Virus record (IMG/VR): IMGVR_UViG_3300009506_000022
Coordinates: 34,007-98,006 of that record
Origin: a virus
Length of the DNA: 64,000 nt
Direction: 5' to 3' (one strand)
Of this stretch, positions 4,664 through 27,066 are shown piece by piece. Below the pieces are notes generated by a model. That model saw only the letters and a program-made list of their open reading frames with translations, was not told where the DNA came from and searched no databases. How positions within the stretch are numbered: the first letter of the stretch is position 1; each line of letters starts with the position of its first letter. The translations under genes were made by a program, and so were the position numbers.

Positions 4664-4921
4664 ATGGTAGAGATATTCATAAACAGGTTGGTTCAGAAGA
4701 TAAACATGTTGAACCTTTTTTTGGTGAACAACGTAGTTGTTGAGCAAGACGAAGATATTCCAACAATTATCATTATCAAGGTGTATCTTTCGAAGTGGGG
4801 ATATTTTTTCTTCGGATTGATACAGTGGTTTGTGAAAAGGAAGCTTGCTGCGGTTGCTTTAGATCTTCCTGAAGATTTTCAGGTTACCATCGAAGCGACC
4901 TATCAATCCCCAAAGAAATGA
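4664..4921 (+). CDS. hypothetical protein
   Basis: AGGAG SD; operon packing. Confidence 0.55.
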   Translation: MVEIFINRLVQKINMLNLFLVNNVVVEQDEDIPTIIIIKVYLSKWGYFFFGLIQWFVKRKLAAVALDLPEDFQVTIEATYQSPKK

Positions 4922-5214
4922 GGCGATTGGTTACATCGAACTCTTTTACACGTAGTCAAGTTCGTTTGATTGTTAGATTGTTTAATGCGTTACTTCAAGG
5001 TCGCGATGTAACGTTTTACTTTCGAAGTCCAGATTTTGGCGCCGTGTTTGAAAAGTTCAAAACGATGTATGATAAGTGGGAAGAAAACGAAAGAAAGAAG
5101 TTTGCCAAAAGAAAAAATAAAAATATCCATAATATTAGGGCAAAGGATGAAAACCCTAAGGAACCGCAAGGGGTTGACAGCTTACCAACTTGCGAGAATG
5201 ACAGGGATATCTAG
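4918..5214 (+). CDS. hypothetical protein
   Basis: ATGA coupling; 3' end overlaps the HTH gene. Confidence 0.5.
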   Translation: MRRLVTSNSFTRSQVRLIVRLFNALLQGRDVTFYFRSPDFGAVFEKFKTMYDKWEENERKKFAKRKNKNIHNIRAKDENPKEPQGVDSLPTCENDRDI

Positions 5215-5341
5215 GGATGACATATCTAGAATGGAAAATGGATGGGTATGTCCTACTATAAATAAGTTATATAAAGTGTCTATTGCCCTTTGTGTTCCGA
5301 TATCTGAGATTGTTTGTGTGCTTGAAGGGATTGAACTGTGA
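5069..5341 (+). CDS. XRE-family helix-turn-helix transcriptional regulator (start uncertain)
   Basis: LGQRMKTLRNRKGLTAYQLARMTGISRDDISRMENG..CPTINKLYKVS..L is a canonical HTH_3 pattern. Confidence 0.85.
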   Translation: MISGKKTKERSLPKEKIKISIILGQRMKTLRNRKGLTAYQLARMTGISRDDISRMENGWVCPTINKLYKVSIALCVPISEIVCVLEGIEL

Positions 5342-5739
5342 AAATAATCATTGCGGGAATCAGAACTTTAACTGATTATTCTATCGTTTGTCGCGCTGTT
5401 GAAATCAGTGGGCTCAAAATCTCTATGGTTGTGAGTGGTTTGGATGACGAGATAGAAAAAAGGAGCGTTCAAGGATTTAGAATTAGAGGCGTTGACGCTT
5501 TAGGTGTTCGTTGGGCAAAACAACACAAGATTCCTTTTATTGTTTTTCCTCCCAATTGGAATCGATATGGAAAACGAGCTGGACCAAAGAGAAACAGAGA
5601 GATGGCGGTTTACGCCAACGGCTTGATTGCTATTTGGAACGGTCGAAGCGATGGAACGAAAGATATGATTGATGCGATGTATAACAAAAAGAAACCGATA
5701 TTTGTTTACAGTTTGTCTTGTGACGAACAATTGGTTTGA
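5338..5739 (+). CDS. SLOG-superfamily (DUF2493/YspA-like) protein
   Basis: KIIIAG.R, VVSG, GVDALG..WA, F...WN.YGKRAGPKRNREM, AIWNG.S.GTKDMI. Confidence 0.85.
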   Translation: MKIIIAGIRTLTDYSIVCRAVEISGLKISMVVSGLDDEIEKRSVQGFRIRGVDALGVRWAKQHKIPFIVFPPNWNRYGKRAGPKRNREMAVYANGLIAIWNGRSDGTKDMIDAMYNKKKPIFVYSLSCDEQLV

Positions 5740-5750
5740 TCGGAGATATC

Positions 5751-6080
5751 ATGAAAAAGAGGATTCGAGATCTAATCGACAGTGATATATCTTATGAAGT
5801 TCCAAGACATGTTCTTGGCCATTTTTTGCAGCTTAGCCATTATACGAAGTTTGAGCGGAAGCTTGAACTTGTTTTTCAGAACTATCTTGGTCGAACTTTC
5901 AACGATTCTACGGTCAATGATTTGGTAGATAGGATTAGAAATATTTGGTCTAGAATGTATATAGAAGGCATGGTCGATTGTCCTGTTGATGAAATGCCAC
6001 TCTATAAAATTGAGTTTGACCATGATCGAAACCTAGTTTTCTCTTGGAATGACGAAGGGGATAGCAATGAAACACACTGA
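5751..6080 (+). CDS. hypothetical protein
   Basis: GGAG SD before ATG 5751. Confidence 0.55.
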   Translation: MKKRIRDLIDSDISYEVPRHVLGHFLQLSHYTKFERKLELVFQNYLGRTFNDSTVNDLVDRIRNIWSRMYIEGMVDCPVDEMPLYKIEFDHDRNLVFSWNDEGDSNETH

Positions 6081-6537
6081 AGGGTTTTGCCATATGGAAT
6101 ATAGTTCTGAATGTGGAAAGAAAATTAGCATTTGGAATAGTCGAGATGGCGTTACACCATTTATTTGTTTTATAGAAGGGGTTGAATATAAACATTCGAA
6201 TTGGAATAACGATAAGCAAAACGCTAGTTATATTCCAAGGGTTGGAGACTACCTTTTTGTTGATTCCACTCTTGAAGATTTGATAGACGAACGTTTTATC
6301 TGGTGGGATACTAACGCTAATTCGATAGATTCGTTTGCTGTGAAAACCTTTCATGCTCACTACGGTTATGATCGGAATAAAACGTGTCGCCTTCTTGCTG
6401 AGGAAGATTTAATTCGAAACGGTGAACCTCCACCACATCTTTTGGTGGCAACAAAAGATTTTGTTCGAGGATGGATTTGTCATAAACAAATGCTTATTAC
6501 CGCCATGGATAGTATTCAAAAAAAATATAAAATATAA
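6067..6537 (+). CDS. hypothetical protein
   Basis: GGGG SD; H.EGFC.M.Y...IWNSRDGVTPF segment. Confidence 0.6.
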   Translation: MKHTEGFCHMEYSSECGKKISIWNSRDGVTPFICFIEGVEYKHSNWNNDKQNASYIPRVGDYLFVDSTLEDLIDERFIWWDTNANSIDSFAVKTFHAHYGYDRNKTCRLLAEEDLIRNGEPPPHLLVATKDFVRGWICHKQMLITAMDSIQKKYKI

Positions 6538-6550
6538 GAAAGTGGTTAAG

Positions 6551-6859
6551 ATGAAGATAATAAACGGAGAACATGATTCAAAAGATAATGAAAGAGTTCC
6601 TTTTTCCACTTTGAAGCCTGGTGACTTTTTTATCCATTCTTCGCGTGTTTTGGTGAAGGTAGATAAAGATATTTATCAAATCGAACATGAAAAAGAGGAT
6701 GGTGCATCTCATAGCTTCAAGCTTGTCTCTGCTGTTCGTATTGGTCATATAGATGATCCAGAAGAATCAAGAAAGATTGCTGGAAAAACAAGTAACATTG
6801 GACAAGACACTAAAGTAAAGTTGGTTGACAATATCGCCGCGATGTATCTAAAAGGGTAG
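6551..6859 (+). CDS. hypothetical protein
   Basis: ATG 6551 after the preceding stop; FSTLKPGDFF segment. Confidence 0.55.
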   Translation: MKIINGEHDSKDNERVPFSTLKPGDFFIHSSRVLVKVDKDIYQIEHEKEDGASHSFKLVSAVRIGHIDDPEESRKIAGKTSNIGQDTKVKLVDNIAAMYLKG

Positions 6860-13184: not shown

Positions 13185-13757
13185 GTGTCAAACATCAAGA
13201 TCGCCACTTTCCTTATTGATTCTCCTTGGCCAGAAGAAGGTGGCGGAAAGATAAAAAGGGGTGCGCCTTATAAAACGATGAAGCCAAGGGATATTTTTCG
13301 TACCATCTGGACATGTCCGATTTTCAACCCAACTGATGACTCTCATCTCTATATGTGTGCTTCGAATAACTATGTTCCGCATGCAATAAGGATGATTTCT
13401 CAGCTTGGATTTGAGTACAAAACAATGTTGACATGGGCGAAAGATCACATGTCTTTAGGGCAATATTTTAGGGGTAGAACTGAACAGATCATTTTTGCTA
13501 CCAGAGGAAAAGGGTTTGCTCTTAGAACGGAAAGACGAGATTTGGATACTTTCATCTTTGCTCCAGTTGAACGATACGAAAGTGGTCCAAACAAAGGCAA
13601 AAAGATTCATTCTAGGAAACCAGAAGCGCTATATGAGAGAATCGAACAACGTTCTTTTGGGCCATATGGCGAGATATTTGCCACACAACATAGAGAGAAA
13701 AAGATAATAGGAAATCGAGAAATTGTATGGACATGTTGGGGTGATCAGTTAGAATGA
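13185..13757 (+). CDS. MT-A70 family adenine methyltransferase
   Basis: IDSPW (DPPW variant), Y.TM, LGFEYKTMLTWAK, LGQYFRGRTE, HSRKPE.LY. Confidence 0.88.
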   Translation: MSNIKIATFLIDSPWPEEGGGKIKRGAPYKTMKPRDIFRTIWTCPIFNPTDDSHLYMCASNNYVPHAIRMISQLGFEYKTMLTWAKDHMSLGQYFRGRTEQIIFATRGKGFALRTERRDLDTFIFAPVERYESGPNKGKKIHSRKPEALYERIEQRSFGPYGEIFATQHREKKIIGNREIVWTCWGDQLE

Positions 13758-15968: not shown

Positions 15969-16394
15969 ATGGCAGATTTTAGTCCATATGTACCGTTGAG
16001 TGAGGACAACTTGCTCGAGGATAAATCAATCAATTCAGCTCCTCAGCGTGCACCGATTTTCACTGAGCACCGTTCAGTTTCTGGCGCGATTGATAGTGGC
16101 GACATAACAACTCGTGGTTGGGGAATGGTGATGTCTGAGTTCAAAACAGCTGTGATAAGAGTTGTTCCTGGAACGACTGCGAATATCACAGTTGAAGCTC
16201 GATTTTGGAGTGAGGATGCTGGCAAGTTTATTTCTGCAAATCCAGCGCTTCAACAAGCTGGTGCTGGTGCTGGAATTCCTTTTGATTACACTGTTGAGGT
16301 AAACGGAAAGATTCTTTTTGTTTATGTAACTGGAACAATCGGAAATGGCGCAAAGATTCAGATAGCTGGTGTTGATTTTATTTCAGAACCGTGA
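15969..16394 (+). CDS. hypothetical (beta-rich, probably structural) protein
   Basis: SD AAGGTG; preceded by hairpin TTCCCCTCGG/CCGAGGGGAA. Confidence 0.6.
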   Translation: MADFSPYVPLSEDNLLEDKSINSAPQRAPIFTEHRSVSGAIDSGDITTRGWGMVMSEFKTAVIRVVPGTTANITVEARFWSEDAGKFISANPALQQAGAGAGIPFDYTVEVNGKILFVYVTGTIGNGAKIQIAGVDFISEP

Positions 16395-17908
16395 TGGCAA
16401 AGACTGCGGAAATAGTACCACTCATTAGAGGTGCAGCAAAGAAGCTTGAGAGATTAGAGCGAAGCGAGTTGGTTTCTGTCTATGAACAGTATCGAACAGC
16501 TTCTAATGAGTGGCTTCGCAGGCAGATAGTAGAAAACAATAGAATAGATATATTAGCGACTGTCATCCTTGGATATAAAGTAAAACCGTTTCATTTGGCA
16601 ATGTTGAAATGGCAGTTTCGTTACCCTCAAAATCTTGTTCTATCGTTTCGTGGTTGTGGAAAATCAACGATATGCACAGTTATAAAAGCCATTCATTTGC
16701 ATTGTAAAAATCGTCAGCTTAGGATCTTGATTGTTTCGGAAAGTAAAGCAACAGCATCTGATATTTTGAGGGACATCAAAGGGCATTATGAAAGCAACGA
16801 TAGGTTGGCTGAAGTTTTTGGTTCTTTTTACGATCCAAAAATTGTCTCGAAATGGGATGTTTCAGCAATATCTATTGTCGGATCGCGACTGACACAAAAA
16901 GAGACTAGTATCATGTGTGCTGGTCCAGATACTCGGATCACAGGAAAGCATTTTGATGTTGGTTTGATCGATGATTTGGTTACAGAAGACAATTCGCGTA
17001 CTGAACATATGCGTGTTCGCGTAAAAACTTGGTATTATAAAACATATAGGCCTTTGATTTTGCCGCCAAAAGAAGGTCTTGAACATAGGGGAGAGCAACA
17101 TCATAACGGAACATTTTATCATTGGGATGATCACTATCATCACCTTGAAGCGAATGAACTAAAAGGCAAAGTTCTAAAAATTCCATCGTTAGATGAAAAC
17201 GATAACTCACCTTGGCCTGAAGAGTATTCAACTAAGTTTTTATTAAACCAAAAAGATGAGCTTGGTTCGATTGTTTTTGGTTCTCAATATCAGATGGACA
17301 CAGACGCAATGAAAGGTGAAATCTTTCAGTATGACGATTGCCACCAAATAGATGGAGCGGATTATCCCCCTATTTCTGACATGATCATAACGATGGGATG
17401 CGATCTTTCTGCGGACGAGAAAGAACAAAAACAGAATGCGATGTTTGCCATTGCTGTTATTGGGATAACTGGCAACATAGCAAAAGATGATATTTATATT
17501 TATCTATTAGATTATTATTTGCAGCATTTGAGACCAAGCAAACAACCAGAAAAGGTTATTGAATATTTTGATATATGGAATCCTTTTAGAGTCGGAATCG
17601 AAACAAATCAATATCAAGCTTCTTTGAAAGAGGCTGTAAAGCTGAAACGACCACAGATGAATGTGATAAAAATTCATTCTAAGATAGATAAAATAACTCG
17701 TGCGATAAATGATTCTAGATATTTTGAAAATGGAAGAGCGTTTTTCAAAAAAGGTGTGCACGCAAAGCCGATCGATCATTTAGTGTTGTTTTCTGCAAGA
17801 TCGAAATACAAAGATTTTTTTGATGCTTATGATTTCGCGCTGTACGCGGCAAAGAAAAAGAGAAACAAACAAGGAAAGCAAAAACGAAAAGTTTTTGGTG
17901 TCTTATAG
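16394..17908 (+). CDS. terL: terminase large subunit
   Basis: Walker A FRGCGKST, ITGKHFD..LIDD, GT.YH.DD, FGSQYQ, nuclease GCDLS and C-terminal D.FDA. Confidence 0.92.
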   Translation: MAKTAEIVPLIRGAAKKLERLERSELVSVYEQYRTASNEWLRRQIVENNRIDILATVILGYKVKPFHLAMLKWQFRYPQNLVLSFRGCGKSTICTVIKAIHLHCKNRQLRILIVSESKATASDILRDIKGHYESNDRLAEVFGSFYDPKIVSKWDVSAISIVGSRLTQKETSIMCAGPDTRITGKHFDVGLIDDLVTEDNSRTEHMRVRVKTWYYKTYRPLILPPKEGLEHRGEQHHNGTFYHWDDHYHHLEANELKGKVLKIPSLDENDNSPWPEEYSTKFLLNQKDELGSIVFGSQYQMDTDAMKGEIFQYDDCHQIDGADYPPISDMIITMGCDLSADEKEQKQNAMFAIAVIGITGNIAKDDIYIYLLDYYLQHLRPSKQPEKVIEYFDIWNPFRVGIETNQYQASLKEAVKLKRPQMNVIKIHSKIDKITRAINDSRYFENGRAFFKKGVHAKPIDHLVLFSARSKYKDFFDAYDFALYAAKKKRNKQGKQKRKVFGVL

Positions 17909-17917
17909 GAGGAATCG

Positions 17918-19711
17918 ATGGGAGAAATAACAAAAAACTCGAACTTGCCTCTTCCAGAATCCCCAGAATCTCTAGCGATAAGAAAAAGGAATGTTAGAGC
18001 TGTTTTGATAAATAGCGACATAATCAAAAAAGTTTCTACCGAAATAATAGAAAAACAAGAAGACACCGAAGTTGGAGGAAGCAAACAAGTAGAAACCGAG
18101 TTTGCAAAGTTGATTTCTTCTGGACAAGCTATTGATCCACCTTTTGATATGTTTGTTTTATCCACTCTTTCTGAGTACAACTCGGAAATGGGACCTTGCA
18201 TCGAGGCAATGAGAACCAACATAGATGGATTCGGTCATCGCTTGGTTTATCGTGGCGATCCAAAAGAGCTTGAAAACGATAAGCCGTTGGCAAAGAAGGT
18301 CTTAGAAGAAAAGGTTAGATTGGAAAACTTCTTCTTGTATGCTGGGCTCGATGATTCGTTTACAAAGATCAGAAAGAAAATGAGAACTGATCTTGAAAAG
18401 ACAGGGAATGCGTATTGGGAAGTTGTCCGCTCCATGAAAGGCGAGATTCAGTATTTTGTTCCAATAAAAAGCTATCAAGTTCGACTTACAAAACGCGACA
18501 AAGAACCAACAGAAGTAAACTTTCCTGTAGTAAAAATAGGACCTGATGGTAAATCGATCAAAAACGATTCGTTCAAAGTAAATACTTATTTCAGGAGATT
18601 TGTTCAGATCACATCGACAACATCTGTTGGCGCAAAAAAAAGTTGGTTCAAACAGTTTGGCGATCCAAGAATAATGGATTGCAAAACTGGGAGTTATGTT
18701 TCTCAAGGCGACTTGGAAAACTTCGAAGATACTGGCAAACCGATGCCAGCAAGTAGAAGGGCAAACGAAGTCGTTCATTGGAAAATGAATGACGATCGTT
18801 CCCCCTATGGATTGCCTCGATGGATTGGAATATTCCTTGATATTTTGGGAGACAGAAAAGCAAGCGAAATCAACTATATTACTTTTTGTAACAATAATAT
18901 TCCAAGCTTGATTATTGCGGTTTCGAACGGGCAACTAACACAAGATACAGTTGATCGCATCAAAGAGTTTTTCGAGAAAGTTCAAGGTGACGACAACCGT
19001 TCGAAAGCACTTGTGCTTGAAGCAGAACCATCAGATGAAGATGATGGAGAGGATGCTGGCGCGACCAAGATTGACGTAAAAACGCTAACGGAAGCGCAAC
19101 ATGATGATGCGATGTTCCAAAACTATAGTCGAGAGAACAGAGAAAAGGTTCGTGTTATCTGGCGCCTTCCTCCTATTTTCACTGGTAGAGCTCAAGACTA
19201 TACGAGAACAACGGCTGAAACTTCTAGAGCGTTAGCTGATGAGCAAATTTTCGCACCAGAACGAGACGATTTTGACGATTGGGTAAACCGTATTTTGTTT
19301 CCAAGAATGGGTGTTTTGTATCATCGTTTTCAATCGAACTCTCCAAATACAACTGATAACTCAGAACTTACAAAGATTCTTTCTGGCGCTGAGAAGACAG
19401 GAGGGATTACACCGCGGATCGCGAGAAAGGTTCTCGAGGATATTTTAAGCGTTGAACTTCCACCGTTTCCAGAGGACTTCAACCCAGATATTCCGTTTAG
19501 CCTGACAATGGCTGAAGCGGTAAAAAATATGGGAAACCCAGTTGAGCCAGGACAATCAGTTACAGCTCTAAAGGGGTTAGAGGATGTCGTGAAACTAACT
19601 GGAACGCCACACCCATTGATTAGTGCATTGATACTTCTTCGAAAGTCGCTTGAAGTCGAATGGTTGAAAGAGGTTTCTGAATCAGAATCAGAAGAAGAAC
19701 ATGTTGCGTAG
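17918..19711 (+). CDS. portal protein (PBSX/XkdE-like)
   Basis: CIEAMRTNIDGFG, DLEKTGNAYWEV.R, YGLPRW, F.NNNIP, D.MFQNY, ..LPPIF.G. Confidence 0.9.
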   Translation: MGEITKNSNLPLPESPESLAIRKRNVRAVLINSDIIKKVSTEIIEKQEDTEVGGSKQVETEFAKLISSGQAIDPPFDMFVLSTLSEYNSEMGPCIEAMRTNIDGFGHRLVYRGDPKELENDKPLAKKVLEEKVRLENFFLYAGLDDSFTKIRKKMRTDLEKTGNAYWEVVRSMKGEIQYFVPIKSYQVRLTKRDKEPTEVNFPVVKIGPDGKSIKNDSFKVNTYFRRFVQITSTTSVGAKKSWFKQFGDPRIMDCKTGSYVSQGDLENFEDTGKPMPASRRANEVVHWKMNDDRSPYGLPRWIGIFLDILGDRKASEINYITFCNNNIPSLIIAVSNGQLTQDTVDRIKEFFEKVQGDDNRSKALVLEAEPSDEDDGEDAGATKIDVKTLTEAQHDDAMFQNYSRENREKVRVIWRLPPIFTGRAQDYTRTTAETSRALADEQIFAPERDDFDDWVNRILFPRMGVLYHRFQSNSPNTTDNSELTKILSGAEKTGGITPRIARKVLEDILSVELPPFPEDFNPDIPFSLTMAEAVKNMGNPVEPGQSVTALKGLEDVVKLTGTPHPLISALILLRKSLEVEWLKEVSESESEEEHVA

Positions 19712-20813
19712 TCAAACAATACATAGCCATATGCATGATGGCATTTCTGCGATTGACGCTATTATCGGTAAGGCGTTGAAGGTGAGTGAACTTGCCAGGA
19801 TTGCGAAGATCGAAACGAATCTTAGAAAGTATATTGGTCGCGAATGGGACTCGTTGGCTTTAGATGCATCGAAACAAGCTGCAAGTGTAATCCGTTCTGG
19901 TTCTGGCGATCCGAATAATGATGATATCAACAGAATGATGGTGAAGATAAATCGCGTAATGAGCGATTGGAACGACAACATAGAGAAGCGATATATAGAT
20001 GACAACAAAGAGGTTTATGAACTTGCGCATATTGCAGCGATGAAGCGTTCTCTTGGCAAAAACAAGAAGCAATTAGAATACAATACGCCAATAGGGCCTG
20101 AAACGAAGGTAAGCAAAGCAAAAGATATCGTTTATGTTACAGGAGATGATGGCGCGCGAGTTCCTGTTGTTCTTCCCTCATTCAACACAGTTGATCTTGC
20201 GGCCATTGATGCTTTTGAGGAACATCAAGTTTTTTGGATCGGTCGACATTATAAAGAAAACGTTTCAAACACAGTTGCTGAAACCGCTCGAAACACGATT
20301 GTGAAAGCTGGTCTTGGACGCGAAGAAGCTGGAAAGATCGCGCAAAAAGTTGTTCGTGAAACGCTGGATATCGTGAAGGTTCCAGGTGGATTCAGTGGAA
20401 CATCAACACAGTATTTCGAAGGCTTGGTTGCGAACGCTGTTACAACACAACGTGTTGCGGCTCAACTCACGAGTTTCGAGCGATTTGGATACACAAAACA
20501 AACTATTGTAAATCCTCGTGATCAGAGGACGTGTCCTATATGCGATTTGATGGACGGAAAAGTTTTTGATGTTTCTGATGGAAGGCGAACTTTAGATAGA
20601 TTGGTCAAAGCGAAGAATCCTACTTCTGTAAAAAAGATTCAGCCATTTATGACAGTTGCGATCGCAAGAGAACTTACTGGTGGTAAACGCGGTCCTATTG
20701 GAGCCAAACAGACTAAAGCTATTGTCGCTAGAGGCAATTCGATTCCCCCATTTCATTTTAAATGTAGGTGCAGTATCGATATAACAGAGGAAGAAGAAAT
20801 CATTTCTTTTTGA
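19701..20813 (+). CDS. minor head protein (MuF / SPP1 gp7-like)
   Basis: D.RTCPICDLMDGKVF and PPFHFKCRC motifs; follows the portal gene. Confidence 0.88.
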   Translation: MLRSQTIHSHMHDGISAIDAIIGKALKVSELARIAKIETNLRKYIGREWDSLALDASKQAASVIRSGSGDPNNDDINRMMVKINRVMSDWNDNIEKRYIDDNKEVYELAHIAAMKRSLGKNKKQLEYNTPIGPETKVSKAKDIVYVTGDDGARVPVVLPSFNTVDLAAIDAFEEHQVFWIGRHYKENVSNTVAETARNTIVKAGLGREEAGKIAQKVVRETLDIVKVPGGFSGTSTQYFEGLVANAVTTQRVAAQLTSFERFGYTKQTIVNPRDQRTCPICDLMDGKVFDVSDGRRTLDRLVKAKNPTSVKKIQPFMTVAIARELTGGKRGPIGAKQTKAIVARGNSIPPFHFKCRCSIDITEEEEIISF

Positions 20814-20822
20814 GGAGTCAAT

Positions 20823-23800
20823 ATGAAAAACGAGCTACCAAAATCTGGAATAGTAGTTACCCCATCAAGTATGGCTGTTGCGATTTCCGAAGGTAGAAAA
20901 ACTATCTTGGTGAAGACGAGAAGCTACAATATTGCCAACAGAGAAATGTTACTTCTTGATCGCAACAAAGCGTTGGGTGTTGTAAAAATCGGAGAAGAAC
21001 AGGTTCTTCAAAACGATAATTTTGGCGAACATGAAGAACAACATCTGATTACAAAAGAGATCAGAAAAGACTGGTCTGAAGCTCAACCATCATGGGAAGA
21101 AGGGCCGTTCTTTCAATGGTCTGTCGAGATGGTTCAGAAATTTGATGAACCAATAAAGACTTATGTTGAGATTGGACCAACAGTTGTTATAGAAGAAATA
21201 AGTGAAATCGATATTGAAAAACGAGGACCTTTTGGACGTTGGGGTAGTTCAGGAATGTATGCTGAATGGCTTATAAAGCAGTTTCCAGAACACAAGAAGT
21301 ATGTCGAGCCATTTGCGGGTTCTGCTTCTATTTTCTTTCGAAAGCAACCTTCAGAATCTGAAGTTCTTGCTGACTACGATAGCGAGGTTGTAAATGCTCT
21401 GAAAACAATTAAAAAGTTGACGGAAGAACAATTTACAGTTCTCGAGTCTAAAGATCGCATCTTGTCCGAAGATAAGTGGAAGGAAATGAGAAGTAACATT
21501 CCTGAAGATTCTTTAGATAGGCTTCATCGAATGTTGTTCTTGAATGGTGGGGGTTGGAGTTCGAGTCTTATAAGCTATAGAATTCATAAAGATGGAAAGC
21601 AATCGTATGACCCGAATAGGCTGAAGCCGTACAAAGAGAGACTGAATAAAGGAAAAGTATCAATAGAATGTGCTGATTGGAAAGCGACGATTAATAAACA
21701 TGATTCAAAAGACACATTTTTCTTTATTGATTGTCCATATCCTGGAGAGTGGAGCAAAAAAGCCGATGATATTCCAAATGACGATCCAAAACGTGGCGAA
21801 AAAGTTCCTCTTGAGGAGTATGGAAAAGTCTTGAAGTCGATCAAGGGAAGTTTCGTTTTTGCGCTTGGTGATCACAAAGAACATCTCAAGTTTTTGAAAT
21901 CACTTGAAGGTGTTGAAATAAAAACGTTTAGTGGAACTGAAGCATCAAATAAAGGTGGAACAAAAACAGCAAAGAGATATTTTGCTTTTAAAACAGCGGC
22001 GTGTGGGAGCAAAAAACCAAAAAAGAAATCGTTTGACGAAGTCGAAACAGATGCAATGGAGTTTATCGATATAACAGAGGACCAACATGTTTTTGACGGG
22101 TTGATCCTAACAACAGAAAAAGAGGTGATTGACTACAGCACTTCTGAGTTAGTTGATATTCATAAATTGCTTCATCAGATATATTCAGAATTACCAGATG
22201 GTTGGAACACATCTGATGTTGTCAATTTACATTCGATGGTTGTTGATGAGTTGTGCTCAAGAGAAAAAAATCACCCGTCACCTCCAGATAATGGCCTTGA
22301 CGATATTTCTTTTGATTTTGAGTGTCTTACATCGAAACAAAAGAAATGGTTTGAAGAAAATTGCGACGAAGTTCCAGAAATTGAAGAGAGCATATCTTAT
22401 CTAGAAAAACGTCGACTTGCTTTATGGGGTTCCACCGCTGGAAAAAGCAGAGTTGCCAAAAGAATTGTGTCGATGATCCCAGAACACAAAACGTATGTCG
22501 AGCCGTTTGCTGGTGGTGCTGCTGTTTTTTATGCAAAAGAGCCAAGCGAAAAAGAGGTTCTTTGTGATTCAAATCCAGAAGTTACACACGCATTCAAGTT
22601 TGTTCAATCTGCAAGTGATAACGAAATCGAAGCGCTTAAGAAAATGGATTGGACAGTAAGCAAGCCTCGAGCAAAATCGGTTCATGAAATGAAACCAAAA
22701 GGAAGCGCTGAGAGATTTTTTAGGTTTGCTTATAAGAGATATGCGCTTTTTATGCGAAATGAAAATAGGATTACCGCAATAGATCCAGCAAAAGAAGGGA
22801 AGGCGCCAGATATAGCGAGTAGGATTTCCGAAACAAGAGAGAGACTGAAGAGGGTTTCTATTGTTGAAGGTGGATATGAAAAAGCGGTTAGTAAGTTTGA
22901 TTCGCCAGAAACATTCTTTTATTTCGATCCGCCATATCCAAGTTTGGTCCAGGAGGTTGGAGAGAAAAGCTTTGATGAGGAAGCTTTCATCAAAACACTG
23001 AAAGGCTTGAAGGGAAAGTTTCTTCTCCATTATGAAGCAAAAGCGAAAAAGAAATTTGATGGCGTTGATGGTTGGATTGTAAAAACCATTTCTGTTGCTC
23101 GTACTCCAGGTCATACAAAAGGAGGTAGCGCGCCAGGAAAACTTCTTGAAGTTAGAAATTATGAACTACCCAAAAAGAAGGTGAAGAAAAACGATCCGTA
23201 TTTGATGGCACCAGAAGGAGAGTTCCCTTTTTCAATACAACACCATTGGATTGGAAAATCGATGAACTCAGTTTTGAGAATCGGTGTTGTTCCAGACAGA
23301 TGTGCGATCGGTTGGGCGATGAATACTCAACAAACTGAAGTAAGCGAACCAGTAACAACTCTTGCGAAATCTCGAGAGATATCAAAAAACTCAAGCAATA
23401 TTTTCAGTGTTGATTGGTCTATTGGTAGATGGAACAAGAAAGGTGAAGAGGAACAACATATAGAGATTCTTTGTAAACGCCAATCTGTTTTTTCTCCTGT
23501 TTGGCTCGACATTGAGGCGAAAACCGCGAATCCAAAAGAAGGTGAACCATTACCTCTTGGCGGGAATCCGAAATATCCAGGTGTTTTCGAGATTGTAGAA
23601 AAAGGGGTAGTTCAGTTTGGCGCTCAAAGCGAAACTCTTCATGAATATTTTCTTTCTGGCACTGGATTCAAAGGAAAAACTATCTTTCGTATGATGAAGA
23701 TCAAAAAATCGATAGATGGTGATTGTCATGTTTGTGGAGTTGACGCAATAGTTGATGTTGGTTGGGCCGATGAACTCCCAGTGAAACTTTGTAAAAAATG

Positions 23801-24953
23801 CTATGACGATTGGCAAAAAAAGGAAGTGATAGAAAAATCATGCATTCCACAGATAGAATATGGTGACGATATTTCGTTCTGGGTTGGAACCAATTCGAAA
23901 GATGCTGTTCCATTTGTGCTATCCGAAAAAGCGGTGAGTAGCGAGTGGATGCCACCAGATGGCGTTGCCGCTTTACCTAAAGAGATCAAAAAACAAATTC
24001 CTAAAGAGTACGAATATTGGAATGAAGCTGGTAGTGATGCGAGACAGATGAGAGATCAACTTGTAAAGGCGATTCAAGAAAAAGATATTCCTCCTTTTGA
24101 TTTCGAGTCAATCTTCAAATCTGATAGCCAGAAATCTGGATTCGTTTTACAAAAGCAAATCTGGGAAGATAAGAGCGATCCACGCTGGTTCATTAGAATT
24201 GATACAGGCAAACCAGAAATAAACGTAATTGAATTGCAGTCAGACCCAACCAATATTGAAAAAAGTGAAGTCCGAGTTTGGGTAGAGAAATATAAGTCTT
24301 CAATGGATATCGAGGGGTTGTTGTCGGTTGCTCATTATCTAAATCCAAAGAAAGGGATTAGCTCGTATCTGAAGAAGGTTGATGTTGGAAACGCTTCTGT
24401 GTTGTCTGATTCTGAAGAATCTACTCAAATTGAGTTTAAAGGAGATATTCTGGATGGAGTATTTACGTTAAAGCGAAATAATAACGAGTACTTATTAGAG
24501 AGAAGCGGCAACGACACAATTGCTGAAATAGAGAAAATGATTGATTTTGAACTTGTTTTGCCAATCGATCATTTTGAAATCCACAAAGCAAAAAAAGGCA
24601 AGGAAAAACGGTTAGTTACTGGAATAGTACTTGAACCAGATATGGTTGATGCTCAAGACGACACCATCAAGTCTGAAGTGATCGAAAAAGCAGCTCATAT
24701 GTTTCTTACTCAGTACAACAAAGAAACGAAACTTGGTTTGATGCACACAACGTTTGGCGATATCGGATTTGAATTGTGTCAATCCTTTCTCTCTCCTGTT
24801 GAGTACACTGTAGGGAAAAAAACAGTAAAAAAAGGAAGCTGGGTAATGACAGTACATGTCACTGATGATAATAGATGGTATGATATAAAAAATCGCAGGC
24901 TCACTGGATTTAGTATTGGTGGGAAGGCGAGGATGGCGAAGAAGAATGGATAA
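20823..24953 (+). CDS. multidomain head polyprotein: ASCH-like + 2x Dam-family adenine MTase + 2x LigD-PE-like + XkdF-type prohead serine protease
   Basis: YVEPFAGSASIFF...FFIDCPY (21222-21990); GKSRVA...YVEPFAGGAAVF...FYFDPPY (22410-23165); C-terminal RLVTGIVLEPD.VDAQDD...LMH...KGSWV...TGFSIGG. Confidence 0.88.
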   Translation: MKNELPKSGIVVTPSSMAVAISEGRKTILVKTRSYNIANREMLLLDRNKALGVVKIGEEQVLQNDNFGEHEEQHLITKEIRKDWSEAQPSWEEGPFFQWSVEMVQKFDEPIKTYVEIGPTVVIEEISEIDIEKRGPFGRWGSSGMYAEWLIKQFPEHKKYVEPFAGSASIFFRKQPSESEVLADYDSEVVNALKTIKKLTEEQFTVLESKDRILSEDKWKEMRSNIPEDSLDRLHRMLFLNGGGWSSSLISYRIHKDGKQSYDPNRLKPYKERLNKGKVSIECADWKATINKHDSKDTFFFIDCPYPGEWSKKADDIPNDDPKRGEKVPLEEYGKVLKSIKGSFVFALGDHKEHLKFLKSLEGVEIKTFSGTEASNKGGTKTAKRYFAFKTAACGSKKPKKKSFDEVETDAMEFIDITEDQHVFDGLILTTEKEVIDYSTSELVDIHKLLHQIYSELPDGWNTSDVVNLHSMVVDELCSREKNHPSPPDNGLDDISFDFECLTSKQKKWFEENCDEVPEIEESISYLEKRRLALWGSTAGKSRVAKRIVSMIPEHKTYVEPFAGGAAVFYAKEPSEKEVLCDSNPEVTHAFKFVQSASDNEIEALKKMDWTVSKPRAKSVHEMKPKGSAERFFRFAYKRYALFMRNENRITAIDPAKEGKAPDIASRISETRERLKRVSIVEGGYEKAVSKFDSPETFFYFDPPYPSLVQEVGEKSFDEEAFIKTLKGLKGKFLLHYEAKAKKKFDGVDGWIVKTISVARTPGHTKGGSAPGKLLEVRNYELPKKKVKKNDPYLMAPEGEFPFSIQHHWIGKSMNSVLRIGVVPDRCAIGWAMNTQQTEVSEPVTTLAKSREISKNSSNIFSVDWSIGRWNKKGEEEQHIEILCKRQSVFSPVWLDIEAKTANPKEGEPLPLGGNPKYPGVFEIVEKGVVQFGAQSETLHEYFLSGTGFKGKTIFRMMKIKKSIDGDCHVCGVDAIVDVGWADELPVKLCKKCYDDWQKKEVIEKSCIPQIEYGDDISFWVGTNSKDAVPFVLSEKAVSSEWMPPDGVAALPKEIKKQIPKEYEYWNEAGSDARQMRDQLVKAIQEKDIPPFDFESIFKSDSQKSGFVLQKQIWEDKSDPRWFIRIDTGKPEINVIELQSDPTNIEKSEVRVWVEKYKSSMDIEGLLSVAHYLNPKKGISSYLKKVDVGNASVLSDSEESTQIEFKGDILDGVFTLKRNNNEYLLERSGNDTIAEIEKMIDFELVLPIDHFEIHKAKKGKEKRLVTGIVLEPDMVDAQDDTIKSEVIEKAAHMFLTQYNKETKLGLMHTTFGDIGFELCQSFLSPVEYTVGKKTVKKGSWVMTVHVTDDNRWYDIKNRRLTGFSIGGKARMAKKNG

Positions 24954-25797
24954 GCCGCAATCTTCAAAACAAAACCTAAAAGATGCCAACGAGATTCTTG
25001 AGCTATTCGTAGGCGAGGTTTCGGTGGTAGATAAGCCAGCTAATCTGCGAGATTTTTTGGTAGTCAAAAGAAGAAACAAGGAGGACTCGATGGGACAAGC
25101 TTTTCAGCAGGATCCTGAGGTCGACAATTTAGAGTTAGTAGAAAAACTAGCTTGGTCAGACCTTGAGAAAGCGGCGCTGCCTGATGATCTAAAGAAAATG
25201 ATCGACTCAGCAGTTGCCTGGATGAAAAAAAACGCAAGTGCTGAGAACGCGCCGAAAGAAGCGATTCTTGCTGCTACAGCACTTCTATCAAAGGTTGCTG
25301 GCGGGAAGTTCCCTGGCACAGCACCGAAATCGAAGGATGATGATAAAGACAAGAGCGATGATAGCAAAGATAAGAAAAAGTCTTTGTTGGTTGTTGGAGA
25401 TGACGGTTCTTTTGAGATCGGCGGTGAGCCTATCGAAAAAGGGAAATCTCAGTTTACCAAAGAAAGAGTTGACGCTTTGAAAAATGCAATAGCGCCTTTG
25501 ATTGGCGTATATGCTCAAGTTGATGAAGCCGGTGCGAAAGAGATGGTTCAAAACCTTGTTGGCGAAACTCTTTCTGGTGAAATAAAGTGGACAGAAAAGC
25601 GTGTTCCAGAACCAACCGATATCGCAGAACAGATCAAGAAGGCAATGGAACCTTTTGCTGAACAAATCAAAGAGGTTGGAAAGCGAGTTGAAGACCTCGA
25701 GGGTTCTCGCTCAGCTCCACAATCTGATCCTGGTGATGGTGACACCACCGACAAACAAAAAAGTGACAACCCTTGGGATGGCTTGCCGATAGGCTAG
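24946..25797 (+). CDS. capsid scaffolding protein with N-terminal protease fragment (internal start at 25090)
   Basis: EVSVVDKPAN at the N-terminus; charged coiled-coil body; C-terminal W-x-G motif; directly precedes the MCP gene. Confidence 0.75.
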   Translation: MDKPQSSKQNLKDANEILELFVGEVSVVDKPANLRDFLVVKRRNKEDSMGQAFQQDPEVDNLELVEKLAWSDLEKAALPDDLKKMIDSAVAWMKKNASAENAPKEAILAATALLSKVAGGKFPGTAPKSKDDDKDKSDDSKDKKKSLLVVGDDGSFEIGGEPIEKGKSQFTKERVDALKNAIAPLIGVYAQVDEAGAKEMVQNLVGETLSGEIKWTEKRVPEPTDIAEQIKKAMEPFAEQIKEVGKRVEDLEGSRSAPQSDPGDGDTTDKQKSDNPWDGLPIG

Positions 25798-25854: not shown

Positions 25855-27066
25855 ATGGGTTTATCAAATGAAGAACTTGCAATGATCCAGAAGGCTATTA
25901 CCGCGGCAAACGTCCTAGTTTCTGCAGGAAAGCTAAATCCAGTACAGGCCTCGAAGTTTCTCGATTATGTGATCGACACCACCGTTATGAAGAACAATGT
26001 TCGTATTGTTCGTTTTCGTAACGAGAAGATGGAGATCAATAAACTCGATATCGGGAATCGAGTTATGTTTCCTGGAACCGAGTATCAAGCTCCACAAGAG
26101 CGTCAAGGGGTTACATCTTCCAAGCTCGAGCTTCAACCGAAAGAGGTTGTTTGTGCTTTCGATATCACCGACACCTTCAAGAATCAAAATATCGAAGGTG
26201 ATAACGCCGCTGATCACATCATGCGGATGTTTGCAACGGGTTGGGGAAACAACATGGAAGAGACAGCGATCAACGGTGATGTCGTTGGTCCAGCTGGTCT
26301 TGAAAATGATGTGTGGGGGTCTGGCTCAACCACACAATACGTCCTTGATTCTTTGCTGGCTTTATTTGACGGTTGGTGGCGTAAAGCAGATGGCGCTCAT
26401 CTCGTTAATATGAATGGTGCAAATGTTGGAATCAGTGTTTTTCGGAAGATGTTGACTGCAATGCCAGCCAAGTTCAAAAAGCAACGGCGTAATCTTCGAT
26501 GGCTTGTTTCCGATGAGTTGGCGGATGTGTATATCGAAAAGGTTTCAACACGCCAAACAGCGAAGGGTGATCGTGCGGCTGAAGGCGAGGAACAATCTCC
26601 TCTTGGAATCCCCATGGTGAGAATCCCGGGATTGCCTTTTAACCCAAAGATCGTTCAACATGTCGCGCTTCCGAACGACACCGCAGTAGCTTTACGCTAC
26701 AAACCGATTGTTTCTGCTTCAGAGGTAGTGACACCAAGCACGTTGGATCGAACTCCAGTGACTCCATATGTTGAGGGAACCGCCTATGATATGGATTACG
26801 TCAATGGGACGATCACAAATCCAAGTGGTGACGCAACTATCGGTGATGGCGATACTGTCAAGATCACTTACGAAGCGGCTCCTCAAATCATTCTAACCCA
26901 TTGGCAGAACTTCATTCTTGCTTTTGGGATGGATGATCTCAAAGTCGAGAGACAACGCAATATCCACAAGCGCGCTGATGAGTATGTTATGAGTGGTCGG
27001 TTTGACCAACTGATTGAAAACCTCGATGCTTGCGTCAAGGGATACAATCTAGGGGATAGTCTATAG
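25855..27066 (+). CDS. major capsid protein (XkdG-like, HK97 fold)
   Basis: G.LNP.QA..F, NIEGD, E..AINGD, DGW; strong SD AGGAGG; position after the scaffold gene. Confidence 0.9.
   Translation: MGLSNEELAMIQKAITAANVLVSAGKLNPVQASKFLDYVIDTTVMKNNVRIVRFRNEKMEINKLDIGNRVMFPGTEYQAPQERQGVTSSKLELQPKEVVCAFDITDTFKNQNIEGDNAADHIMRMFATGWGNNMEETAINGDVVGPAGLENDVWGSGSTTQYVLDSLLALFDGWWRKADGAHLVNMNGANVGISVFRKMLTAMPAKFKKQRRNLRWLVSDELADVYIEKVSTRQTAKGDRAAEGEEQSPLGIPMVRIPGLPFNPKIVQHVALPNDTAVALRYKPIVSASEVVTPSTLDRTPVTPYVEGTAYDMDYVNGTITNPSGDATIGDGDTVKITYEAAPQIILTHWQNFILAFGMDDLKVERQRNIHKRADEYVMSGRFDQLIENLDACVKGYNLGDSL

Follow-up and report, generated by a model that had tools for sequence, protein, structure and literature searches.

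The fusion gene and its place among the head genes

The stretch of DNA analysed here, referred to below as the window, comprises 64,000 nucleotides and represents the 3' two-thirds of a 98,006-bp virus genome from the IMG/VR database (record IMGVR_UViG_3300009506_000022), whose completeness is estimated at 98%. As a tail-sheath protein is encoded in this genome, the virus is a myovirus. Its head genes lie in the order large terminase (TerL), portal, MuF, fusion gene, scaffold and major capsid protein (Table 1), and the fusion gene, the subject of this study, is a single uninterrupted open reading frame (ORF) of 1376 codons for amino acids. It is the prohead (capsid-maturation) protease gene of the phage, in which 1240 residues have been added on the N-terminal side of the XkdF-type protease domain. 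An earlier note on this DNA, made from the sequence alone, had placed a 1376-residue ORF between the MuF and scaffold genes and had described it as a protease joined to a train of DNA-modifying and LigD-like domains. The gene order and the Pfam and phrog matches confirm the position, and domain parsing by profile searches and AlphaFold models recovered the proposed anatomy almost domain for domain.

The assignment of the C-terminus to the XkdF-type serine proteases, originally made from the motifs LMH and GFSIGG, is upheld by family profile, residues, fold and genomic slot. The Pfam profile PF14550 (Peptidase_S78_2) aligned to residues 1253-1370 with 91.6 bits against a cut-off of 24, and with 96.9 bits in the genome-wide search. 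The candidate catalytic residues D1276, H1308 and S1364, the last of which lies in GFSIGG, are invariant in 20 relatives, and H1292 is present in at least 90% of them. The fold of the domain resembles that of the T4 prohead protease gp21 (5jbl, Z 7.6, 119 residues), which was the third-best row when a model of residues 780-1376 was searched against the whole PDB, the next row having a Z of 4.9; structure matches in BFVD were to XkdF proteins and to annotated prohead proteases. Profile searches of the genome found no S78 or ClpP domain and a single XkdF domain, so that no head-protease domain other than this one was detected.

The downstream scaffold gene most likely starts at an ATG at 24946 that overlaps the protease stop codon (ATGGATAA), rather than at a TTG at 24916. 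Two further products were considered at this junction and are not claimed: a +1 frameshift that would fuse protease and scaffold, as the ATGGATAA overlap shows no evident slippery site, and a protease-only product from an internal start at M1240, the region upstream of which has no Shine-Dalgarno-like sequence.

As the source is a single metagenomic contig, the ORF might in principle be an artefact, either an assembly chimera or a set of separate genes merged by sequencing errors. However, four full-length orthologues of 1370-1376 residues (62-71% identity), with the same domain order and no stop codons, were found in JGI and Logan assemblies, dozens of related fusions occupy the same slot, and the composition is even along the gene. 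Because the four orthologues share the whole architecture and related loci have a fusion in the same slot, an assembly chimera in particular, which the earlier note had named as a possible undoing of its claim, appears very unlikely, and the artefact explanation altogether is barely credible.

Table 1. Positions of the head genes, of the domains of the fusion gene (all in window coordinates) and of three mislabelled XkdF proteases in cultured phages (coordinates of the respective phage records)
Feature	Position	Strand	Basis or remark
TerL (large terminase)	16391..17908	+	
Portal	17918..19711	+	
MuF-like minor head protein, directly upstream of fusion gene	19701..20813	+	Pfam PF04233, E 2.5e-7
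Fusion gene	20823..24953	+	single uninterrupted ORF, 1376 aa
ASCH/PUA-like domain, aa 1-132	20823..21218	+	AlphaFold2 (AF2) model fold
Dam-family (D12 class) N6-adenine methylase 1	21219..21998	+	PF02086, E 3e-15, aa 147-308
His-rich helical module, aa ~436-512	22128..22358	+	alignment; no known family
Dam-family N6-adenine methylase 2	22404..23177	+	PF02086, E 1.2e-16, aa 540-737
PE1, LigD-phosphoesterase-like domain 1, degenerate, aa ~800-960	23178..23717	+	sequence motif only
CxxC...CxxC zinc-ribbon-like finger, then helical linker	23718..24122	+	C968, C971, C990, C993 (translation)
PE2, LigD-phosphoesterase fold 2, without His/His/Asp metal ligands	24123..24527	+	structure match
XkdF-type (Peptidase_S78_2) prohead serine protease, C-terminal end and stop codon	24540..24953	+	PF14550, E 5e-26
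Scaffold gene	24946..25797	+	phrog_3017 (C-terminal part); start overlaps protease stop codon
Major capsid protein	25855..27066	+	phrog_1623, E 2e-66
Mislabelled XkdF protease, Pseudomonas phage VCM (L005)	4941..5393		150 aa
Mislabelled XkdF protease, Rhizobium phage RHph_Y1_11 (L002)	5974..6612		212 aa
Mislabelled XkdF protease, Lactococcus phage 28201 (L003)	4857..5906		

Domains of the extension

The ASCH/PUA-like domain proposed for the N-terminus could be recognized by its predicted fold, although the Pfam ASCH profile (PF04266) gives no match to this part of the protein. An AF2 model of residues 1-132, built on ten relatives, has a predicted local distance difference test score (pLDDT) of 86. 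In a Foldseek search it matched 2dp9 (E 2e-6) and the Zymomonas protein ZmASCH (5guq/5y6c, about E 2e-4), and in VIA-wide it aligned to 5guq over 119 residues with a Z of 11.0. The top structural rows were all ASCH proteins or ASCH-like structural-genomics proteins, and no other named family appeared among them. The Pfam profile gave one match among the ten relatives (E 0.09), and in the more distant protein P0169 it reached 22.2 bits with a cut-off of 21.2.

Both of the predicted Dam-family methylases are matched by the MethyltransfD12 profile well above its cut-off of 22 bits (57.1 bits for methylase 1 and 61.6 bits for methylase 2). Motif IV of D12-class enzymes has the consensus (D/N/S)PP(Y/F/W). 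Methylase 2, with PFAGGAA as motif I, has the canonical DPPY as motif IV and is, with 79-84% identity among orthologues, one of the most conserved domains of the protein. Methylase 1 has PFAGSAS as motif I and, in the orthologue alignment, a variant motif IV that reads DCPY in four of the five orthologous sequences and DPSY in the fifth. In one orthologue, P0005, methylase 1 is only 31% identical, although all its other domains have 56-88% identity. This indicates a cassette swap, such as would fit arms-race turnover under restriction pressure. The palindrome statistics of the 98-kb genome did not point to a target of either methylase: GATC occurs at 457 sites with an observed/expected ratio of 0.68, a moderately low value that says little about methylase specificity. 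Compared with a Markov expectation, TTAA (0.34), AATT (0.55) and CCGG (0.31) are strongly under-represented across the genome, possibly reflecting restriction avoidance, and CTCGAG (1.77) is over-represented. Two other methylase-like genes were noted in the same phage. One is a free-standing C5 cytosine methylase outside the window (G000:C1:22390-23559, + strand, PF00145 E 8e-46), and the other a weak N6_N4 methylase-like ORF at about 13338-13706 of the window (+ strand), whose match (E 3.6e-4) is under the cut-off.

The His-rich helical module between the two methylases is a real, conserved unit. Its alignment contains four invariant histidines, which lie in the invariant motifs H-x3-H and NLH and in a tail of the form HPxPPDxGLD..S.DFE. 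No relative of the module was found in Pfam, the Atlas or the PDB, where the profile search gave a chance-level match only. Among 1.84 billion representatives, it is present in 231 clusters.

The remainder of the extension consists of two domains that resemble the 3'-phosphoesterase (PE) domain of LigD and a finger between them. For the second of these, PE2, the earlier proposal of a PE-like fold is now firmly grounded. A structural model of residues 780-1376 (597 residues, pLDDT 81) was compared with the PDB by Foldseek, and the six best matches were all LigD 3'-phosphoesterases. In VIA, PE2 (model residues 325-449, that is, about residues 1104-1228 of the protein) aligned to 3p4h with a Z of 16.4 and a root-mean-square deviation of 1.9 over 115 residues, and to 3n9b with a Z of 13, so that it has the same eight-stranded beta-barrel fold as these bacterial and archaeal LigD PE domains. 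Every LigD chain in this comparison aligned to PE2 alone and none to PE1. The proposal for the first domain, PE1, is accordingly supported by a sequence motif, the fold match being confined to PE2. In relatives, this region keeps the motif VQxHWRGKSxHSDLR followed later by HEY, whereas the window and its orthologues read QHHWIGKSMNSVLR, and the only PDB match of the PE1 family profile was the archaeal PE domain 3p4h (E 0.39), aligned exactly on the catalytic motif. In a profile-profile comparison, PE1 and PE2 showed no significant relation (probability 3%), and their common origin therefore rests on fold and motif. The finger was as described, with its cysteines read from the translation; these are kept in most relatives, and in the model short strands give way to helices.

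The catalytic and metal-binding residues of the Pseudomonas aeruginosa LigD PE domain are His42, His48, Asp50, Arg52, His84 and Tyr88. In PE1 of this phage the pattern is H..N.V.R instead of the H..H.D.R of its relatives, the second His and the Asp being gone, and in PE2 the motif reads FVLQKQ...WFIRID, with Q and no His or Asp at the ligand positions. With the Pfam profile LigD_N (PF13298), a search of the genome had no result up to an E-value of 10; the profile gives a weak match to PE2 of a relative (E 0.0025, under the cut-off). A domain search found no ligase domain in this phage. Because the metal ligands are lost, LigD_N is silent and a ligase is absent, the two domains appear to be fold relatives of the LigD phosphoesterase and not functional members of that family, and they are presumably catalytically dead here. 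In relatives, PE1 keeps H..HxDxR beside an ATP-dependent ligase, as in LigD, whereas the two copies of this phage have neither the metal ligands nor an accompanying ligase or polymerase domain. The block formed by PE1, finger, helices, PE2 and XkdF (about residues 780-1376 here) is the conserved core of the family; it is also present in relatives that have no methylase or that have a C5 methylase replacing Dam. With the ligands lost and the block conserved alongside the protease without any methylase, the PE tandem most likely connects cargo and protease as a hub with a structural or DNA-binding role.

In a rival explanation, the whole 1240-residue extension is mainly structural. It would help to build or size a large (98-kb) head, whether as internal core, as spacer or as additional scaffold, and the enzyme folds would be relics of little or no activity. 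The PE folds, conserved despite the loss of their catalytic residues, the variant catalytic motif of methylase 1 and the presence of the PE-finger-PE block with the protease even in the absence of methylases would all agree with such a role. We nevertheless consider it improbable, as the motifs of methylase 2 are canonical and its sequence is strongly conserved, close relatives with homologous major capsid proteins need a protease of only 140-250 residues, and the cargo changes freely among relatives, unlike a structural core.

The XkdF family and its cargo

The earlier note had proposed a survey of the domains that are fused N-terminally to XkdF in viral metagenomes, and such a survey was carried out. 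A scan of viral contigs with the single protein returned no relatives, but one based on an alignment succeeded: the profile scan of IMG/VR yielded 76 loci. An XkdF ORF is present in 75 of these, and its size ranges from about 140 to about 1780 residues. For counts of ORF size and slot, the 58 loci in which the XkdF ORF is not cut by the start of the contig were used. Among these, 23 ORFs have up to 350 residues, 7 have 351-700, 16 have 701-1200 and 12 are longer than 1200, and in 40 of the 58 loci a MuF gene lies upstream and a major capsid protein gene downstream. Of all 75 loci, 55 have a homologue of the major capsid protein downstream of XkdF. Judged by this gene content, the long and the short forms share one slot in a lineage with homologous terminase, portal, MuF, scaffold and capsid genes. 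The extension is N-terminal in every case, and its content varies.

In a search of 5.8 billion proteins, 98 of the 115 matches carry Dam together with XkdF and about 26 of them also an ATP DNA ligase, according to our own count from the precomputed Pfam column. The ligase of these relatives sits directly upstream of the block that runs from PE1 to XkdF. Further cargo in relatives includes a 2H phosphoesterase, a C5 methylase, class-I methylases, domains of S-adenosylmethionine decarboxylase and pyridoxal-phosphate enzymes, and inteins; the ASCH domain and the His-rich module also recur. The latter always co-occurs with the same cargo set as the XkdF fusions and often stands at the C-terminus of proteins without XkdF, which matches the arrangement of the loci L017, L020 and L031, where, as in L029, the cargo is held in a separate upstream gene. 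In L029 (6201-9730), two overlapping ORFs of 892 and 303 residues stand in place of the fusion, the break falling between the finger region and PE2; this break may be a frameshift, either real or due to a sequencing error. The archaeal virus ANMV-1 (KP703175, L004, 3200-5800) has an 866-residue protein annotated as 'ATP-dependent DNA ligase' that holds PE1 and the middle region of the conserved block (24% identity, E 3e-19); an XkdF domain was not detected in it.

Some relatives also have MuF genes that are extended to 900-1400 residues (L056:4221-7037, L014:2-3646 and L013:2473-5208). These extended MuF proteins have, for instance, a C-terminal ADP-ribosyltransferase domain, a weak match to HipA-like kinases or an intein. 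Because MuF genes of relatives carry cargo as well, two head proteins of this lineage appear to be cargo carriers.

Among 50,697 GenBank phage records, no XkdF-methylase fusion was found, and in 185,579 species genomes there was only one XkdF match, a distant one in a metagenome-assembled genome of the Polyangiaceae. Nor did full-text searches of the literature turn up a description of XkdF-anchored methylase or ligase fusions. The XkdF proteases of known elements (XkdF of Bacillus subtilis PBSX and those of Pakpunavirus, Otagovirus, Lactococcus ul36-like phages, psiM2 and haloviruses) belong to the same Pfam family and occupy the same slot after portal or MuF, but they have 150-350 residues, stand alone or joined to the scaffold, and have no methylase cargo. 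Several cultured phages carry a gene labelled 'DNA methyltransferase/prohead protease'; these were examined as candidate fusions and rejected, being plain proteases of 150-350 residues (Table 1). The label 'DNA methyltransferase' is likewise attached to the XkdF proteases of JG004, K5, other Pakpunavirus and Otagovirus phages and Lactococcus phage 50901, none of which has a methylase domain. Probably, this annotation was transferred from fusions like the gene in the window.

Predicted scaffold docking and the proposed delivery of the cargo

The N-terminal peptide of the scaffold protein, EVSVVDKPANLRDFLVVKR, is its most conserved stretch, the first 40 residues exceeding the rest in the alignment. 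In 66 of the 75 loci, XkdF terminates its ORF and the next gene starts with EVSLVDxPA within 400 bases. When the XkdF domain and scaffold residues 1-70 were modelled as a complex, the median score was 0.78, compared with 0.00 for the best control. In calibration, 58 of 80 solved complexes and 2 of 110 mismatched pairs attained this level, counts that are only rough as the docking used our own alignments. The runs agreed in at least 76% of the contacts, and the pLDDT of the partner was at least 51. We know of no solved XkdF complex, and it seems unlikely that the prediction passed from the memory of the model. The predicted contacts link scaffold residues 13-38 with residues 124-131 (GFSIGG), 47-55 and 62-69 of the XkdF domain, so that the docked peptide in the model touches the active-site face, at the serine loop with GFSIGG, the AAH helix and the histidine of LMH. 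This suggests that the C-terminal domain ties the protease to the scaffold or recognizes the scaffold as a substrate, and the predicted docking, which is new in this analysis, offers a possible route into the procapsid. Since a tether between XkdF and scaffold would leave the N-terminus of the protease free, it would also explain why cargo accretes at that end only.

Two other features of the scaffold were noted. The consensus of its N-terminal peptide, AREILDLxVREVSLVDRPANLRxFLVVKR (window 24946-25100), is similar to LVTGIVLEPD, the first strand of XkdF. The scaffolds of L008, L014, L019, L021 and L026 carry an inserted zinc-ribbon-like motif, CPxCG...CxxCGY, at alignment columns of about 340-380, which is absent from the scaffold of the window.

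Prohead proteases are built into procapsids. We prefer, although with no more than middling confidence, a reading in which the scaffold-bound protease brings its cargo train into the procapsid and the freed methylases and ASCH domain act at the next infection. The protein would be made late, alongside the other head proteins, and its C-terminal protease domain would bind the invariant N-terminal peptide of the scaffold, whose gene comes next and would be translationally coupled. Since scaffold and major capsid protein would assemble jointly, the whole fusion would come to lie inside the procapsid, where the activated protease would digest the scaffold and probably cut the linkers of its own extension. 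As folded domains, ASCH, both Dam methylases and the hub of PE and zinc-ribbon domains would be too large for the capsid pores and would therefore remain with the DNA. At the next infection they would pass into the host along with the genome, and adenines of the incoming DNA would be methylated before host restriction sets in; methylation during packaging would be possible as well. Encapsidation, processing, methylase activity and delivery are inferred in this scheme. A carrier role of the protease domain would agree with the sole head protease found in the genome, the kept protease slot, the N-terminal-only extensions and the predicted scaffold docking. The methylase, ligase and 2H phosphoesterase cargo of relatives, which is nucleic-acid-modifying or -repairing, is consistent with this role, as is the ADP-ribosyltransferase carried by the neighbouring MuF protein of relatives. 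ADP-ribosyltransferases are an established class of head-packaged effector, and C-terminal cargo on MuF is a pattern of polyvalent proteins (PMC5512222).

Precedents for head-packaged, injected proteins include DarB of phage P1 and Alt and the internal proteins of T4 (PMC5512222). P1 DarB, a head-carried DNA methylase with antirestriction function, provides cis protection for the genome on entry and serves as functional model for the fusion gene. It differs in that it is separate from the protease, depends on DarA and further proteins for its loading and contains an SF2 helicase, whereas a Pfam scan found no helicase in the fusion protein; beyond the methylase fold, the two have no sequence relationship. 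The likeness to Alt and the internal proteins of T4 lies in passengers that are loaded in the prohead core, freed by the prohead protease gp21 and injected. In T4, however, a short N-terminal capsid-targeting sequence is present on separate proteins, whereas here the passengers are covalently attached to the protease itself.

The closest general concept is that of the polyvalent proteins of phages and conjugative elements, described by Iyer, Burroughs, Anand, de Souza and Aravind in 2017, in which disparate enzymes, including N6-adenine methylases and 2H phosphoesterases, are combined with a peptidase in one polypeptide encoded in the neighbourhood of virion genes, and for which passage together with the DNA and action at entry were proposed (PMC5512222). 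As a multi-enzyme polypeptide with a peptidase encoded among virion genes, the product of the fusion gene matches this type in architecture. However, the anchors and peptidases of the published polyvalent proteins are MuF, portal, virion RNA polymerase and a zincin metallopeptidase (PMC5512222), whereas the anchor here is a prohead serine protease, and XkdF does not occur in that paper (PMC5512222). Their methylase, moreover, is of the DarB type and paired with an SNF2 helicase (PMC5512222), in contrast to the Dam (D12) class and the tandem of dead LigD-PE domains found here. The novelty would lie in head-loaded polyvalent cargo on a new anchor, which is plausible and partly supported, the general idea being already published and the family being common in metagenomes.

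Several points weigh against delivery in the head. Both PE domains look structural, which weakens the picture of a cargo train, and motif IV of methylase 1 is non-canonical. As split variants exist, the covalent link to the protease is not obligatory. The carrier role that the earlier note had assigned to the protease domain is partly supported, by slot, sole protease, N-terminal cargo and predicted docking. The docking itself is a matter of model confidence with our own alignments and a low pLDDT of the partner. A passenger of 155 kDa on each protease copy would fill much of the head volume, unless copies are few or the bulk of the protein is broken down. The free-standing C5 methylase means that, in principle, self-methylation needs no encapsidation. 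Finally, none of the 50,697 GenBank phage records searched has such a fusion.

As an alternative, the protein could be a late polyprotein that is not delivered at all. The fusion would then only couple the timing, amount and place of the methylases to head assembly, and the enzymes, set free by the protease in the cytoplasm or at the packaging vertex, would methylate progeny DNA in the producing cell, either ahead of packaging or in its course. S-adenosylmethionine, which is needed for methylation, is plentiful in that cell, split variants with a separate upstream cargo gene work uncoupled, and other methylase genes of the phage, such as the free-standing C5 methylase, act in the ordinary way. 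We find this explanation rather doubtful, as it does not account for cargo that is always on the N-terminus of a procapsid-incorporated protein, nor for an XkdF domain that ends its ORF beside the scaffold peptide. In addition, the ligase and end-healing enzymes of relatives make most sense at entry, and the adjoining MuF gene bears classic injected effectors.

Delivery by the protease could be part of a more general system, an idea that we regard as possible and put forward tentatively. XkdF docked on the EVSLVDxPAN peptide would then be a general loader for N-terminal fusions, by which one uncultured lineage delivers an exchangeable kit for protection and repair, comprising Dam and C5 methylases, ATP ligase, LigD-type end-healing enzymes and 2H phosphoesterase, and the module with four histidines would dock cargo that is not fused.

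If the protease does carry its cargo into the head, there would be a second, protease-anchored route for pre-loading heads with antirestriction and DNA-repair enzymes, beside MuF and portal fusions and targeting peptides, with a cargo set that swaps between close relatives. It would also provide a rule for the engineering of capsid cargo, namely fusion to the N-terminus of the protease. The existence of such fusions would moreover explain the widespread 'DNA methyltransferase' mislabelling of small XkdF proteases in Pseudomonas, Lactococcus and Rhizobium phages.

As regards the window in general, the long ORFs between positions 1 and 64000 are all on the + strand, the GC skew is positive throughout and the cumulative skew climbs monotonically.

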